Positions 43,049 through 56,377 of a stretch of DNA of 64,000 bases are shown here, piece after piece; positions within the stretch are counted from its first letter, which is position 1, and each line of letters starts with the position of its first letter. The stretch is from Acidimicrobiia bacterium (lineage in GTDB: Bacteria; Actinomycetota; Acidimicrobiia; Spongiisociales; ZC4RG35): NCBI GenBank assembly GCA_965209025.1, contig OZ242375.1, positions 258,302-322,301 of the forward strand, given 5' to 3'. Under the pieces are notes generated by a model that was not told the origin of the DNA, did not search any database, and saw only the letters and a list, made by a program, of their open reading frames with translations. The translations under genes were made by a program, and so were the position numbers.

Positions 43049-44344
43049 CTACCAGGAAACAAGACGCCCGTCTGGAAAGAGGCTGATCCAGGGGCGACCG
43101 GCGGGAACCGTTATGGGAGAACCATCGGACAGCATGAAAGAGAAGGGCTGGGCCGTGTCCGCCCGCTCCCATCTTCCGTCCACCACCTGGCCCTCGGCGA
43201 ACACCAGCGCCCTTCCCTCGCCGGTGGTCTCCATGGTGGGGAGAGTCACACCGCCCTGGGGGGGTGTGGTGTAGAACAATCGGGAGAAGATCACCACCAG
43301 GACATCGGCGGTGATCACTTCCTCCGCCCCCTCGACGTGGGTCCAGGTGTGGGGACCGTCCTCCAGGTGCCGCTCATACGTGCTTCCGTTCCACTTCCAG
43401 GTGACGGTGTTGGTCGGCGCCCACTCCATGGTCACTCTGGAGACTCCGCCCGGGATGCCCGAGAGCGGCAGGTCCCCGATCTCGAACAGAGGGGGTGGGG
43501 GAGTGTTGGGATAGAGGCGCTGGTCGGCCGTGGGCCGGAACTCGGCCGTGTTTACGAAGTAGTTGTGAGGCGCCCGCCGAGTCTCCTCGCGGTACCCTCC
43601 CACGCCGATCTCTCCGATCACCCCCACCCCGTTGCGCGGAAAGGTGTTGATGATCCAGTCCTGGCCCCCGCTGGCCAGCACGGTGGTGTTCAGGTGTCGG
43701 AGCAGGTGGGGATCGGTGGGCCGCACCGAGCGCACCGGCCCCACGTAGGTGGAGTCGACGGAGTGGAACAAGGCTATGAAGCGAGTTATCCCCGACTCGA
43801 CCAGCAGTTCGAATACCGCTTCGGCTTCGCCGATGCCGACCTGGGGACGGGAGTCCCAATGATTGTCGACTTTCACCGCCATGGTCCGTCGGTTCAAAGA
43901 GTCCGGGTCGGCCACGCCCAAACCTGTCAGCGGACTGGGCGTCGGGGGCGGCCCGGGAACGGCGGTGGTCGTGGTGGTGTCCTCGGTGGGGGTGGTCGTA
44001 GCGCCGGGGGTTGCGCTCGTGGTTGTTGTGGTGGTGTCCTCGGGGGTGGTGCCCTCGGTGGTGGTGTCGGTGGTGTCCTCGGTGGGGGTGGTCGTAGCGC
44101 CGGGGGTTGCGCTCGTGGTTGGGGTCTCGCCGGTTGGGGTTGCTGTTGTGGAGGAGGCTGTCGTGTCGGAGGTCTCCGCCGAGGCCTCGGTGGTGGGCGA
44201 CTGGGAGGTGGTTCCCGGTTCTTCTCCGGAGTCTCCGCCGCACGCCGCCGCCAGGACAGCCACAACCGTCGCCACCAGTATTCTTCGCATTAGGAGGGAT
44301 GCTAAACCACCGGCGGCGTTGTTCTGTTTCTTTACTTCTCGCAA
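43049..44344 (-). CDS. DUF3048 domain lipoprotein (YerB-like) with long Thr-rich linker
   Basis: Lipobox LAAAC. About 100-aa T/E/P-rich linker. The MAVKVDNHWDSRPQVGIGEAEAVFELLVESGITRFIALFHS block matches DUF3048. Alternative start ATG 44290. Confidence 0.7.
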   Translation of the reverse strand: MREVKKQNNAAGGLASLLMRRILVATVVAVLAAACGGDSGEEPGTTSQSPTTEASAETSDTTASSTTATPTGETPTTSATPGATTTPTEDTTDTTTEGTTPEDTTTTTTSATPGATTTPTEDTTTTTAVPGPPPTPSPLTGLGVADPDSLNRRTMAVKVDNHWDSRPQVGIGEAEAVFELLVESGITRFIALFHSVDSTYVGPVRSVRPTDPHLLRHLNTTVLASGGQDWIINTFPRNGVGVIGEIGVGGYREETRRAPHNYFVNTAEFRPTADQRLYPNTPPPPLFEIGDLPLSGIPGGVSRVTMEWAPTNTVTWKWNGSTYERHLEDGPHTWTHVEGAEEVITADVLVVIFSRLFYTTPPQGGVTLPTMETTGEGRALVFAEGQVVDGRWERADTAQPFSFMLSDGSPITVPAGRPWISLFPDGRLVSW

Positions 44345-45243
44345 CCCGTTCCACCGGAGATGGACACGAGCGTGTCCTCCGGCCCGGCTCCGGTGAAGAC
44401 TCCCGTCAGGTAGCCCGGTCCGGGGACGTCCACTTCCAGAATCGCTTCCTGCGCCTCAGGGGCCTCCTCGATGGCGTCCTGCGCCTCAGGGATCTCCTCG
44501 GAGGAGTCGTCGGGTGTTTCGGAGGAGTCGTCGGGCGGTTCCGGTGCAAAAATGTAGGTAATGGCGGCCTCGCCGTAGATCGAAGACGCACGGGCCAGGG
44601 TTGTGCCCAGTCTCACGCCCTCGGAGGTGCGGAGTTCGGGTCCGGCCGGCAGAGACTGCCCCTCCAGGAGGGAATAGGTGAAAGAGAACAGGTGCTCGTG
44701 GCCGTCCGGCCCCCAGTCGGTGGGACCGTCGGAGAGATAGACCGTGAGGCTTCCCCAGTTGACCACCCGCGCCCTGACCCCCGGACACCGGAGGATGTCG
44801 AGGTCCGCCGGTACCCATCCCGTGTCGTTGTCCGGGTTCCCGAGCGCTCCGGTCAGAACGGCGATGGTCCTCTGTGCGCCGCTTCCGAAGGGAAGAGGTC
44901 CCAGCCCTTCGGGTTGGAGGTAGAGATCCGCCGCCGCGATGGGCTCCTCCACGAATGTGGCGGGAGGAAGAGTGGTGGCGGGCGGGGACGTCTCGGGAAC
45001 CGGAGTGGTGGCGGGCTGGGTTGGCCCGGTCCCGGGGCTCTGCGACGGAGTGGTGGTGGCGGCGGTGACGGTGGTTGTGTCGGCGCCGGCCGGTCCGCCG
45101 GTCAGACCGGAGCTTCCCAGAGCGTTTCGAATGACCAGCACCACCGCAGTGACGGCCATGATCACCACCAGCGTCCCCAGGGTCACGAGCAGGGTCCTCT
45201 GCCATCTCTCCAAGCGATTGGTGGGCGGGCGTGGCGGATGCAT
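44332..45243 (-). CDS. Membrane-anchored hypothetical protein with Thr/Pro-rich linker
   Basis: N-terminal TM anchor (LLVTLGTLVVIMAVTAVVLVI), T/P-rich linker, acidic C-terminal repeats (ETPDDSSE). Confidence 0.5.
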   Translation of the reverse strand: MHPPRPPTNRLERWQRTLLVTLGTLVVIMAVTAVVLVIRNALGSSGLTGGPAGADTTTVTAATTTPSQSPGTGPTQPATTPVPETSPPATTLPPATFVEEPIAAADLYLQPEGLGPLPFGSGAQRTIAVLTGALGNPDNDTGWVPADLDILRCPGVRARVVNWGSLTVYLSDGPTDWGPDGHEHLFSFTYSLLEGQSLPAGPELRTSEGVRLGTTLARASSIYGEAAITYIFAPEPPDDSSETPDDSSEEIPEAQDAIEEAPEAQEAILEVDVPGPGYLTGVFTGAGPEDTLVSISGGTGCEK

Positions 45244-45259
45244 TGTCCTCGATGACCTT

Positions 45260-45718
45260 CTATGCGGGATGGCCCCCGGACGGCCGGACGGCCGGGGCGC
45301 TCCGGCTCGGGTACCTGAGGATCATCCTGTACATGCAGTCGGTCCCTACCGGCCCGAAGGTTCGGGAGTCGTCCCTGGTAAGTGGCCGCTGGTCCGAGAG
45401 CACGAACACCCTTTCCTGGGGCACTGCCCACCGCCCCTCGGGCACCGAGAACCCGGTTCCCCAGTGGTCGAGACCCGCTTTCCCGTCGATCAGAACTTCT
45501 CCCCCCTCGATGGTAACCATCTCGCCTCCCATCCCCACCACTCGCTTGACCATCCAGAACCCACCTCGGACCGGATGCGGGAAGGCAACGATGCTCCCCC
45601 GGCGGATGGACTCTGCCCGGTGGGCGAGCCGTCCGATGAAGCGGGCGCCATCACCCAGGGCAGGGCTCATCGAGGCGCCGGAGACCGCGAACCGTCTGAG
45701 GCGGAGTCTGCTCATCAT
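45260..45718 (-). CDS. sodX: S26-family peptidase, Ni-SOD maturation protease (SodX-like)
   Basis: Ser/Lys dyad context (VSGASMSPAL ... KRVVG). Short single-domain form. Divergently adjacent to sodN. Confidence 0.72.
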   Translation of the reverse strand: MMSRLRLRRFAVSGASMSPALGDGARFIGRLAHRAESIRRGSIVAFPHPVRGGFWMVKRVVGMGGEMVTIEGGEVLIDGKAGLDHWGTGFSVPEGRWAVPQERVFVLSDQRPLTRDDSRTFGPVGTDCMYRMILRYPSRSAPAVRPSGGHPA

Positions 45719-45768
45719 CGCTATTCTGGCTACAACAGGCTTCCTGTTACCCCCAGAGAGGAGTTAAC

Positions 45769-46186
45769 CATGCCGCTATTCAGGCCTGCCACCGTCGTTC
45801 ATGCCCACTGCGACCTCTTTTGTGGAGTTTATGACCCCGCCCAGGCAATGATCGAGGCTCGCTCGGTGCTCAACGCCTGCACCAAGTACGCCGAATCCGA
45901 CGATCCGGTGTTCCGGGACAGGTGCATCATCATCAAAGAGCAGCAGGCCGAGTTGGTGAAGCACCACCTCTCGGTGCTGTGGTCGGACTTCTTCAAGCCC
46001 CACCACGTTGAATCGTTCCCCCAGTTGCATGATTTGTTCTGGCGGGCCCTCAAAGCGGCCAGTGACGCCAAGAAGTCGATGGACCCCGCTGTCTCCCAGG
46101 GCCTCGTCGACCTGATCGGGGAAATCTCCGGCATCTTCTGGCAGACCGAAGAGTCCAAGGCCGCGGGCGTTTACCCACCCGCCTAA
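45769..46186 (+). CDS. sodN: Nickel-containing superoxide dismutase precursor
   Basis: Propeptide MPLFRPATVVHA, then Ni-hook HCDLFCGVYDPAQ and conserved KEQ.AEL.KHH.SVLWSDFFKP core. The ORF-track frame from 44939 is a 5' over-extension. Confidence 0.9.
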
Positions 46187-53651: not shown

Positions 53652-53744
53652 CAGTCTCCACAGCGACCGGCGGGGCCGCCGGCAGGGAGAGGGCGCCGAG
53701 AATGGAGCCTCTTTTCGTTTACATTCCGTTAAGAAAGGGGGTAT

Positions 53745-53760
53745 CATCTCCAGCGTTCAT
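53745..53760. promoter_or_regulatory. Perfect inverted repeat GTTCA-N6-TGAAC, 47 nt upstream of the liv substrate-binding protein gene
   Basis: Reads gcGTTCAttgaagTGAACaa, inside an AT-rich leader. Confidence 0.3.
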
Positions 53761-53806
53761 TGAAGTGAACAACTTACAGAATTCCTTCGGAACAGAGGAG
53801 AGAAAC

Positions 53807-56377
53807 ATGCTCCGCTTACCAACAACTACAAGGGCTAGGGGACTGCTCAAGTTCCTGGTCGTGCTCTCTTGCGCAGCGCTTGTCCTTTCGGCTTGCGGCG
53901 ACGACGAGACCGAAGAACCGACCGCCACCGCGGCTCCGACCACTGCCGCCCCGGATGAACCTACGGAGGAGATGCCCATGATGGACCATCTCGGAGATGG
54001 TTCGTTGGGTGTTGTGGAGGTGGAGCCGGGTGAGGCTGTCCAGATCCGTTCGTTGAACGCGATCACGGGTGATGTGGCCTTCTTCGGCCTGCCGATCGAG
54101 CGGTCCGTGGTTTTGGCGATCGCCGACTACGGGCAGATTCATGGTTTTGATGTGGATATGGGTACCGGCTTGGATGACCTGTGTTCCAATGATGGGGGTC
54201 AGGCTGCGGCTCAGATCATCGTTGCCGACGAGGATGTGATCGGTGTGATCGGGACTTCGTGTTCCGGGGCGGCCACGGCTGCGGCGCCGTTGATCACCGA
54301 TGCTGGGATGGTGCTGATCTCGGGTGGTAACACCTCGCCTGCGCTTACTTCGGACCTGGCTGGTACGGCTGGAGCGAACTACAGCTACGGGTATTACCGG
54401 ACGGCTCATAACGACCTGTTCCAGGGTCGGGTGATGGCTGAGTTCGTGTTCAACGAACTGGGCATCTCCACTGCGGCTGCTATTCACGACGGAGACCCCT
54501 ATACGCAGGGTTTGGCGAAGGCTTTCACCGATGCGTTTGACGCGTTGGGTGGTGATGTGACCGGTTTCTCGGCTGTGAACAAGGAGGACACCGACATGGT
54601 GCCGGTGCTCACCGAGATCGCGGCGGGGAGTCCCGGGGCATTGTTCTTCCCGATCTTCCAGCCCGCCGGCGACTTCGTAGCCGAACAGGCCCCCGGTGTC
54701 TCCGGCTTGGAGAACACGGTGCTGTTGGCGGCTGATGGTTTGTTGAATACCTCGTATCTGGCTTTGTCGCAGACCGAGGGGATGTACTTCTCGGGTCCGG
54801 ACACCCGGTTCGGTCAGAACGTCAACGCCAGCACCGGTAAGACGGCCCAGGATTTCCTGGCTGCCTACGAAGGGGATTACGGCGAGGCGCCTGCCGCGCC
54901 TTTCTGGGCTCACGGCTATGACGCCACCACCTTGCTGCTCGACGCCATCACCGCCGCCTCCTACGTTTCCGAGGACGGCTCGTTGATGGTTGACCGCCAG
55001 GGAGTCCGCGAGTATCTCGACAACGTAAGGGACTACCAGGGTCTGATCGGCTTGATCAGTTGCGATGACTTCGGTGACTGCGGTTCGCAGTTGATCACCG
55101 TGGTCTACCACCAGAGCGCCGACAATCCGGAAGCCACCATGGGCAATGTCGTCTACTCCGGAGGCGGAAGCGGAGAGGGGACGATGGAGCCCCTCGGCGA
55201 CGGTTCTTTGGGCACCGTTACCGTGGAGCCCGGTGAGGCTGTCCAAATCCGTTCGCTGAACGCGATCACCGGTGATGTGGCCTTCTTCGGCCTGCCGATC
55301 GAGCGGTCCGTGGTGCTGGCCATCTCCGACTACGGGCAGATCCACGGTTTCGATGTCGATATGGGTACCGGCTTGGATGACCTGTGTTCCAATGATGGGG
55401 GTCAGGCTGCTGCTCAGATCATCGTTGCCGATGAGGATGTGATCGGTGTGATCGGGACTTCGTGCTCGGGTGCGGCCACGGCTGCGGCGCCGTTGATCAC
55501 CGATGCGGGTATGGTGCTGATCTCGGGTGGTAACACCTCGCCTGCGTTGACTTCGGACCTGGCCGGGACGGCGGGAGCGAACTACAGCTACGGCTATTAC
55601 CGGACGGCTCATAACGATCTGTTCCAGGGTCGGGTGATGGCGGAGTTCGTCTTCAACGAACTGGGTATCTCCTCTGCGGCTGCCATTCATGACGGCGATC
55701 CTTATACGCAGGGTCTGGCGAAGGCTTTCACCGATGCGTTCGACGCGTTGGGTGGTGATGTGACTGGTTTCTCGGCTGTGAACAAGGAGGACACCGACAT
55801 GGTGCCGGTCCTCACCGAGATCGCGGCGGGGAGTCCGGGTGCGTTGTTCTTCCCGATCTTCCAGCCCGCCGGCGACTTCATCGCTGAGCAGGCGCCAGGG
55901 GTTTCGGGCTTGGAGAGCACGGTGCTGTTGGCGGCTGATGGTTTGCTGAACACCTCGTATCTGGCTTTGTCGCAGACTGAAGGCATGTACTTCTCGGGTC
56001 CGGACACGCGGTTCGGCGAGAATGTCAACGCCAGTACCGGGAAGTCGGCCCAGGATTTCCTGGCTGCTTACGAGCGCGACTACGGTGAACCGCCTGCGGC
56101 GCCTTTCTGGGCGCATGGCTATGACGCCACCACGATGCTGCTGGACGCCATCGCCGCGGCTTCGCACCTCGCTGACGACGGTTCCTTGATAGTCGACCGG
56201 CAGGGAGTGCGTGCTTTCTTGGACGGCGTCCGCAACTATCAGGGTCTGATCGGGCTGATCAGCTGTGATGACTTCGGTGACTGCGGTTCGCAGTTGATCA
56301 CCGTGGTCCACCACCAGAGCGCCGACAACCCGGAGGCGAGCATGGGCAATGTCGTCTACTCCGGCGGAGGCAACTGA
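53807..56377 (+). CDS. Branched-chain amino-acid ABC transporter substrate-binding lipoprotein, tandem double-domain (two LivJ/LivK-like modules fused in frame)
   Basis: ATG 53807 with GGAGAG SD. Lipobox LSAC. Two type-I periplasmic-binding-protein modules, each about 390 aa, with DNA more than 90% identical by eye, joined by an SGEGT linker. Confidence 0.8.
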   Translation: MLRLPTTTRARGLLKFLVVLSCAALVLSACGDDETEEPTATAAPTTAAPDEPTEEMPMMDHLGDGSLGVVEVEPGEAVQIRSLNAITGDVAFFGLPIERSVVLAIADYGQIHGFDVDMGTGLDDLCSNDGGQAAAQIIVADEDVIGVIGTSCSGAATAAAPLITDAGMVLISGGNTSPALTSDLAGTAGANYSYGYYRTAHNDLFQGRVMAEFVFNELGISTAAAIHDGDPYTQGLAKAFTDAFDALGGDVTGFSAVNKEDTDMVPVLTEIAAGSPGALFFPIFQPAGDFVAEQAPGVSGLENTVLLAADGLLNTSYLALSQTEGMYFSGPDTRFGQNVNASTGKTAQDFLAAYEGDYGEAPAAPFWAHGYDATTLLLDAITAASYVSEDGSLMVDRQGVREYLDNVRDYQGLIGLISCDDFGDCGSQLITVVYHQSADNPEATMGNVVYSGGGSGEGTMEPLGDGSLGTVTVEPGEAVQIRSLNAITGDVAFFGLPIERSVVLAISDYGQIHGFDVDMGTGLDDLCSNDGGQAAAQIIVADEDVIGVIGTSCSGAATAAAPLITDAGMVLISGGNTSPALTSDLAGTAGANYSYGYYRTAHNDLFQGRVMAEFVFNELGISSAAAIHDGDPYTQGLAKAFTDAFDALGGDVTGFSAVNKEDTDMVPVLTEIAAGSPGALFFPIFQPAGDFIAEQAPGVSGLESTVLLAADGLLNTSYLALSQTEGMYFSGPDTRFGENVNASTGKSAQDFLAAYERDYGEPPAAPFWAHGYDATTMLLDAIAAASHLADDGSLIVDRQGVRAFLDGVRNYQGLIGLISCDDFGDCGSQLITVVHHQSADNPEASMGNVVYSGGGN
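53990..56370. repeat. About 1.18-kb in-frame tandem direct duplication (copy A about 53990-55170, copy B about 55190-56370)
   Basis: Long runs of identical sequence between the two halves of the SBP gene. Confidence 0.75.

Follow-up and report, generated by a model that had tools for sequence, protein, structure and literature searches.

A nickel superoxide dismutase with phenylalanine in place of the hook proline, paired with a divergent S26 peptidase, in an Acidimicrobiia bacterium

Does the hook of nickel superoxide dismutase (NiSOD) depend on its proline? The question is raised by a sodN gene in a 64,000-nucleotide stretch of DNA from an Acidimicrobiia bacterium (contig OZ242375.1, positions 258,302 to 322,301; hereafter the window), which encodes Phe at mature residue 5, where the canonical hook H-C-x-x-P-C-G-x-Y has Pro. 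An earlier examination of the window, made from its letters alone (the sequence-only reading), had noted the Phe codon and had left two explanations side by side: a lineage that tolerates Phe5, and a sequencing or assembly error. Our analysis showed a genuine substitution that is fixed throughout a clade, other changes that co-occur with it, and a conserved pairing of sodN with a protease gene. We consider it likely that the locus encodes a functional NiSOD together with a dedicated cytoplasmic S26 peptidase, in an Acidimicrobiia-specific subfamily with a bulky aromatic residue 5.

The sodN gene and its nickel hook

The two genes of the locus span exactly positions 45260–46186, the interval given in the sequence-only reading. 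They had been named there as sodN and a divergent short S26 peptidase gene, and the profile scores agree with both identities. The sodN side comprises the following elements:

45770..46186, + strand: sodN, nickel superoxide dismutase precursor, 138 aa plus stop (profile, structure, and dN/dS evidence)
45770..45805, + strand: propeptide MPLFRPATVVHA, 12 residues, whose predicted removal exposes His1 (alignment to the mature enzyme)
45806..45832, + strand: nickel hook HCDLFCGVY, mature residues 1–9 (sequence read)
45818..45820, + strand: Phe5 codon ttt in place of the canonical hook proline (sequence read and homologue counts)

The reading frame runs from the ATG at 45770 to the taa stop at 46184–46186, and the product consists of MPLFRPATVVHA followed by HCDLFCGVYDPAQ. 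It scored 134.1 bits against Pfam PF09055 Sod_Ni (cutoff 25) and 140.3 bits against NCBIfam TIGR02753 sodN (cutoff 90). The alignment to the S. coelicolor NiSOD (1t6u/1t6q, E ~4e-40) begins exactly at His1, which is His13 of the precursor. The AlphaFold2 (AF2) model of the mature protein, with a predicted local distance difference test (pLDDT) value of 90.2, is a four-helix bundle (helices 12–30, 34–62, 74–90, and 94–111). Its best Foldseek matches were 1t6u, 1q0d, and 3g4x, with TM-score (TMt) values of 0.91–0.96; the sequence identity to 1t6u was 59% over 116 residues (TMt 0.91). The bundle and the precursor-plus-cleavage architecture are shared with the S. coelicolor and S. seoulensis enzymes (1t6u, 1q0d). 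By all profile and fold criteria, the window gene is a genuine NiSOD, and this assignment is solid. Compared with 68 orthologues, the mature region had a median ratio of nonsynonymous to synonymous substitution rates (dN/dS) of 0.09 (0.04–0.09 for close pairs, and 0.04–0.07 for those close pairs that were unsaturated), showing strong purifying selection. An identical protein is already present in public databases, encoded on a 2.6-Mb contig and placed in a 90%-identity cluster with 68 members, and the homologues there are automatically annotated as 'superoxide dismutase, Ni'.

The Ni ligands His1, Cys2, and Cys6 sit at the predicted mature N-terminus, directly behind the propeptide (MPLFRPATVVHA followed by HCDLFC). 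The codons of the hook are His 45806–08, Cys 45809–11, Asp 45812–14, Leu 45815–17, Phe 45818–20 (ttt), and Cys 45821–23. Phe at position 5 was thus read as the sequence-only reading had it, but the positions 45814–45816 that it had proposed for a read pile-up fall 4 nt short of the codon, across the boundary between the Asp and Leu codons. In the alignment to 1t6u/1t6q, the change of Pro5 to Phe is the sole difference within the hook. Residues H1, C2, D3, L4, C6, G7, V8, Y9, D10, and P11, together with Glu17, are common to the Streptomyces and window proteins. Differences from the Streptomyces enzyme are Pro5 to Phe, Tyr62 to Phe, Arg47 to Gln, the 12-residue propeptide, and a 9-residue extension that ends in GVYPPA.

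Residue 5 across the NiSOD family

The homologue survey comprised the 120 best database matches, which were 73–95% identical to the window protein and came from many independent assemblies. Residue 5 was Phe in 114 of them, Met in two, Tyr in one, and Pro in none; three were unscorable, two having no N-terminus and the third (P0089) having its HCDLFCG outside the search window. In a search in which each species was represented by one genome, 282 genomes had a relative of the window SodN. Among the best 80 of these, 79 had HCDLFCGVY and one had HCDLACGVY (L082, JALYHC010000206.1). Their labels were mostly Acidimicrobiia, or else bacterium or Actinomycetota, and two were Gemmatimonadales and Myxococcota. 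With four further contigs, the 80 genomes gave a set of 84 related loci, with Phe5 in 83 (54 TTC and 29 TTT codons) and Ala5 in one. The nearest genomes by SodN (98–99% identity) were the metagenome-assembled genomes (MAGs) RHO1_bin_22, RHO3_bin_31, and SB0665_bin_24, which we take from their naming schemes to be marine-sponge metagenome bins.

These counts bear on the possibility that the true residue is Pro and that Phe5 reflects a sequencing or assembly error, or a mutation private to one strain. What speaks for an error is the prior expectation alone, as Pro5 is invariant in the published motif (PMC4460010). Two bases must change to turn a Pro codon (CCN) into a Phe codon (TTY), and the next clade out has Tyr5. 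Phe5 was found in 114 of the 117 scorable closest homologues and in 83 of the 84 loci, across independent assemblies, and the occurrence of both TTC and TTT at one fixed amino acid indicates selection rather than an artefact. The independent assemblies and the two Phe codons refute the error explanation for the clade, and we assign it practically no weight; the tolerance of Phe5 by the lineage, the other option of the sequence-only reading, was borne out by the same counts. As a side observation, position 5 takes several residues after the loss of Pro, with Ala5 in one MAG (L082) and Met5 in two of the 120 homologues.

Metagenomes were searched with the pattern CAYTGY-N9-TGYGG-N4-TAYGAYCC, which fixes H1, C2, C6, G7, Y9, D10, and P11, and leaves residues 3–5 and 8 free. 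Of the first 120 matches, 118 were NiSODs, with Pro in 112, Tyr in four, and Phe in two. An aromatic residue 5 is therefore present in ~5% of these metagenomic NiSODs, and Pro in ~95%. A HMMER search of 1.84 billion 50%-identity representatives returned 761 family clusters. The hook was recognizable in 105 of the best 150 representatives, a sample biased toward the neighbourhood of the query, and residue 5 was Pro in 90, Tyr in eight, Phe in four, and Met in three. The prospect that Phe5 might be common among NiSODs, raised in the sequence-only reading, held within one clade but not family-wide: Phe5, though fixed in that clade, is rare across NiSODs as a whole.

With a Tyr5 sequence as the query, 120 matches were obtained, of which 117 had Tyr and two had Phe. 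Their sources included an Ilumatobacter sp. (4.1-Mb contig), Ilumatobacter coccineus, and Acidimicrobiaceae. The I. coccineus match is a MAG and the Ilumatobacter sp. match carries no MAG label; judged from these entries, the Tyr5 form seems to occur in Ilumatobacter, a cultured genus. Like the window protein, the Ilumatobacter-type NiSOD (HCDLYCGVY) belongs to the same clade, with ~60–69% identity, Phe62, a GVYPP[AS] tail, and an aromatic residue 5; it differs in having Tyr5 instead of Phe5 and Ala or Thr instead of Lys at residue 64. In the searchable literature, we found no description of an aromatic-5 hook or of a NiSOD of Acidimicrobiia or Ilumatobacter, an earlier mention being possible. 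Some aromatic-5 NiSODs stand under other labels, namely Mycolicibacterium sarraceniae (P0362, 4.8-Mb contig), Candidatus Nanopelagicales MAGs (P0319 and P0324), and, among the related loci, Gemmatimonadales and Myxococcota MAGs (L069 and L072). Horizontal transfer, mis-binning, or contamination are possible explanations for these labels.

A neighbour-joining (NJ) tree was built from 185 NiSODs with column 5 masked. All 53 non-Pro tips (28 Tyr, 24 Phe, and one Met) fell into one clade that contained zero Pro tips, with a few switches between Phe and Tyr inside each subclade. The Phe subclade, which includes the window protein, consists largely of Acidimicrobiia MAGs from sponge, coral, sediment, and soil, and the Tyr subclade is of the Ilumatobacter type. 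When columns 5 and 62 were both masked and a cruder distance was applied, strict monophyly was at first lost (bootstrap 17/48), owing to P0292. This sequence looks chimeric or frameshifted, having a Tyr-clade N-terminal half and an unrelated C-terminal half. With P0292 dropped, the non-Pro group was monophyletic under the same masking (bootstrap 121/200). There is moderate support for Pro5 having been lost once, in an ancestor, with later drift from one bulky residue to another. The pattern of the clade at position 5 is bulky and mostly aromatic (Phe or Tyr, rarely Met or Ala), not Phe specifically.

Two other sequences are set apart here. P0235 looks chimeric, with a Tyr5 hook on a long-type (marine-like) body. 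P0236, a 50%-cluster representative, has HCDLMCGVY with Tyr62 kept (WTDYF) and is otherwise of the Pro type; Pro5 may have been lost independently here, outside the clade of Acidimicrobiia, although P0236 is partly frameshifted with a garbled C-terminus and its quality is uncertain.

Around position 5, the hook is tightly conserved. H1, C2, D3, L4, C6, V8, and Y9 were invariant among the scorable sequences of the Phe subclade (118) and the Tyr subclade (112), and residue 7 was Gly in all but three of those scored, which had Ala. D10 and P11 were also invariant in both subclades, and Glu17 was nearly so. The Gly7 to Ala hooks read HCDLFCAVY (once) and HCDLYCAVY (twice) in the P0001–P0120 and P0286–P0405 sets.

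The motif H-C-x-x-P-C-G-x-Y is taken as diagnostic of NiSOD and has served as a hard filter in surveys, PMC4460010 being one example. A large, strongly conserved natural clade, with hundreds of 90%-identity clusters, breaks this diagnostic motif at position 5, so that screens relying on the motif would count too few NiSODs, among marine, sponge-associated, and soil Acidimicrobiia in particular. We regard this as an incremental but concrete correction to the textbook motif, not as a new kind of system.

The divergent S26 peptidase

Upstream of sodN, the locus contains two further elements:

45260..45718, − strand: sodX-like soluble S26 peptidase, 152 aa (Peptidase_S26, 68.9 bits), divergent and 51 bp upstream of sodN
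45719..45769, no strand: 51-bp divergent intergenic region with a Shine-Dalgarno-like agaggag 5' of the sodN ATG

The translation of the peptidase shows SGASMSP, VKRVVG, and LSDQRPLTRDDSR motifs. The catalytic Ser16 lies in SGASMSP (codon 45671–45673) and Lys58 in VKRVVG (codon 45545–45547). Judged from the sequence itself rather than by a transmembrane predictor, the position of Ser16 near the N-terminus leaves no space for a membrane anchor or transmembrane helix. The protein resembles SodX (TIGR02754) in being a short soluble S26 Ser/Lys peptidase beside sodN, with Ala at position −1 of the cleavage site; it differs from the SodX model in being longer than its 90 positions and in having a hidden Markov model (HMM) profile nearer to generic signal peptidase I.

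This profile raises the alternative that the flanking gene encodes an ordinary signal peptidase I, a chance neighbour, and that SodN is processed in another way. The peptidase passes the TIGR02227 signal peptidase I cutoff (63.7 vs 47 bits) and fails that of TIGR02754 (37.1 vs 63.25 bits). The catalytic Ser at residue 16 and the missing N-terminal membrane anchor argue against this alternative, as does the conserved arrangement. In 84/84 related loci, a divergent S26 homologue directly precedes sodN, with peptidase identities as low as ~35–40%, and the same arrangement was present in 6/6 aromatic-5 metagenome loci. The propeptides also fit the specificity of S26 peptidases, with Ala at −1 and a small or aliphatic residue at −3: Ala was at −1 in every one of the 84 related loci, and the propeptides ended nearly all in A-H-A or V-H-A, with a few in A-F-A, A-Y-A, and A-S-A. 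We consider the chance-neighbour explanation very unlikely. Based on synteny and architecture, we take the peptidase to be a SodX-type maturation protease; the SodX-like label of the sequence-only reading stands on these two grounds and falls short on the curated TIGR02754 score. By analogy, this peptidase probably cuts the SodN propeptide, and cleavage after Ala12 would expose His1.

A tblastn search of Pro5 loci with the window peptidase matched 19/98, the query being too insensitive for divergent SodX.

The peptidase genes of some relatives show peculiarities. In L001 3491–3946 (−), L002 1025–1318, and L003 1234–1527, the public peptidase calls are only 97 aa long and start after the catalytic serine. 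The full 151-aa open reading frame (ORF) of L001, including SGASMSP, is conserved with the 152-aa ORF of the window, which indicates that the 97-aa calls are truncated. In L073 125–370 (−) and L072 922–1110 (−), the sodX-like match is partial or has an in-frame stop, beside an intact sodN; decay or an assembly error may account for this.

Accompanying changes, hook closure, and neighbouring genes

Two differences outside the hook accompany the change at residue 5:

45989..45991, + strand: Phe62 codon ttc where S. coelicolor-type NiSODs have Tyr62 (WSDFFKP vs WSDYFKP, 1t6u alignment)
46166..46183, + strand: C-terminal tail GVYPPA, within a ~9-residue extension that is absent from the Streptomyces-type NiSOD

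The description of the rest of the protein as a typical NiSOD in the sequence-only reading was right for the fold and the profiles, but not for these two differences. Residue 62 was Phe in 123/124 non-Pro5 sequences and Tyr in 97/104 Pro5 sequences. Tyr9 is invariant, and the second-sphere Tyr62, outside the formal motif, is replaced by Phe. Val35, Lys90, and Leu103 also mark the aromatic-5 clade against Pro5 sequences. The mature length is 126 aa in the clade vs 116–119 aa in the Streptomyces type, and the GVYPP[A/S] tail was present in all aromatic-5 sequences.

Two candidate changes were set aside. The idea that the GVYPPA tail uniquely compensates for the missing Pro5 was weakened by long-type Pro5 NiSODs (143–151 aa), which also have ..LVYP.. 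tails. Mature residue 47 (45944–45946) is Gln in the window SodN; the S. coelicolor enzyme has Arg47 there, which belongs to the His1-Glu17-Arg47 hydrogen-bond network. This change was rejected as an active-site change linked to Phe5: Gln was found in just 15/118 sequences of the Phe subclade, and Arg47 is kept in the Tyr clade and in the metagenome aromatic-5 sequences. Positions 17 (Glu or Ala) and 47 (Arg, His, or Gln) vary family-wide.

The joint change of two residues near the Tyr9 gate (Pro5 to Phe or Tyr, and Tyr62 to Phe), together with the clade-specific Val35, Lys90, and Leu103 and the C-terminal tail, suits another explanation. The aromatic-5 proteins could be derived from NiSOD but diverged, with weak or inactive superoxide dismutase (SOD) function, another redox tuning, or another metal or small oxidant, the loss of Pro5 and of Tyr62 having reshaped the active-site gate. 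Herbst and co-workers reportedly probed the Tyr9 environment in 2009 with the S. coelicolor variants Y9F, Y62F, Y9F/Y62F, and D3A, of which Y9F is said to have altered the kinetics. The Tyr mutants are all said to have retained considerable activity, which speaks against a divergence in function. So do the invariant metal ligands, Asp3, and Tyr9, with Gly7 and Glu17 nearly so, the strong purifying selection (median dN/dS 0.09), and the retention of a dedicated protease, presumed to expose His1, in 84/84 loci. A motif scan of the window found no other SOD type, 64 kb being too small to judge the genome. On balance, we hold functional divergence to be rather unlikely.

We therefore return to the preferred reading of a functional NiSOD with its own peptidase. 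As all ligands and the protease are conserved, propeptide cleavage, Ni binding, and Ni(II)/Ni(III) cycling are the expected mechanism. The S26 peptidase would cleave the precursor after Ala12 to give a free His1. Ni(II) would then be bound by the amine of His1, the amide N of Cys2, and the thiolates of Cys2 and Cys6, with the imidazole of His1 as an added axial ligand in the Ni(III) state. Cycling between Ni(II) and Ni(III) would dismutate superoxide, as in the Streptomyces NiSOD. By analogy with that enzyme, Ni binding and SOD activity are probable for the window SodN.

The hook would then have to close without proline. Non-prolyl cis peptide bonds are intrinsically rare. In the Streptomyces NiSOD, the bond before Pro5 is cis, in agreement with the title of Tietze et al. 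2010. We hypothesize that the turn, usually pre-organized by proline, is held in the window protein by a trans 4–5 bond or by a metal-stabilized non-prolyl cis bond. Aromatic packing that involves Phe/Tyr5, Tyr9, and Phe62, and perhaps the C-terminal VYPP tail, may replace the rigidity of proline.

Published peptide chemistry bears on this proposal. Proteolysis of the proprotein seeds the nickel hook, the source of all metal-binding interactions, and a six-residue NiSOD maquette is active (PMC2707248). Short Ni-metallopeptides HCDLPCG(VY...) also have catalytic activity, and in their models the Leu4-Pro5 bond is trans (PMC5722923), so that a trans hook is chemically plausible; these peptides set a precedent for hook closure that does not need a cis-proline turn. 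These HCDLPCG... metallopeptides and maquettes show that the first 6–12 residues are enough for Ni binding and catalysis (PMC5722923, PMC2707248). Unlike the window SodN, they are synthetic and still contain Pro5, and they are much less active than the enzyme.

Several points weigh against the preferred reading. The motif H-C-x-x-P-C-G-x-Y is described as needed for metal binding and catalysis (PMC4460010), and the window hook fits eight of its nine positions and fails at position 5. The solved structures found among the matches come from Streptomyces enzymes or point mutants of these, each of them with Pro5, and the AF2 model is uninformative on the hook, with pLDDT <50 for residues 1–7 (metal-free) and ~64 for the tail. 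The association between residues 5 and 62 amounts to about one evolutionary event, so that the correlation is one of descent rather than of demonstrated coupling; a single origin has only moderate bootstrap support (60%). The peptidase, too, falls short of the SodX cutoff.

If the preferred reading is extended further, the clade may form a structurally distinct NiSOD subclass with a proline-free hook closure. An aromatic triad Phe/Tyr5-Tyr9-Phe62, possibly capped by VYPP, would replace Pro5/Tyr62, and anion gating, peroxide release, or redox tuning would differ. This proposal is tentative, and we would put its chances at somewhat below even. Were it true, the textbook motif would have to be revised, and surveys filtered by it would have overlooked ~5% of environmental NiSODs. 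The conservation pattern suggests that the hook proline is dispensable in nature. The natural Phe5, Tyr5, Met5, and Ala5 variants with Phe62 are natural experiments on the roles of the hook proline and Tyr62, and the cultured Ilumatobacter, with its apparent Tyr5, would make in vivo tests possible.

The neighbourhood of the locus is ordinary. The G+C content of the window is 64%, and the flanks are syntenic with relatives: an amidase gene, a DUF3048 protein gene, and a gene for a 303-aa membrane-anchored protein precede the divergent sodX-like and sodN genes, which are followed by a convergent metG, an EamA transporter gene, and others. The DUF3048 protein (43049–44344, −) has repeated Thr-rich N-terminal segments, with ..TTSATPGATTTPTEDTT.. 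occurring twice. The 303-aa protein (44332–45243, −), encoded between the sodX-like and DUF3048 genes, is predicted to have a single membrane helix; it contains a Thr/Pro-rich linker and had no match in Pfam. The synteny with L001–L003 includes this gene and the DUF3048 gene. Further downstream, an 891-aa ORF (53702–56377, +) contains two stretches that match Peripla_BP_6/ANF_receptor. Periplasmic binding proteins are not usually this long, and a duplication, a fusion, or over-extension of the ORF could account for the length.

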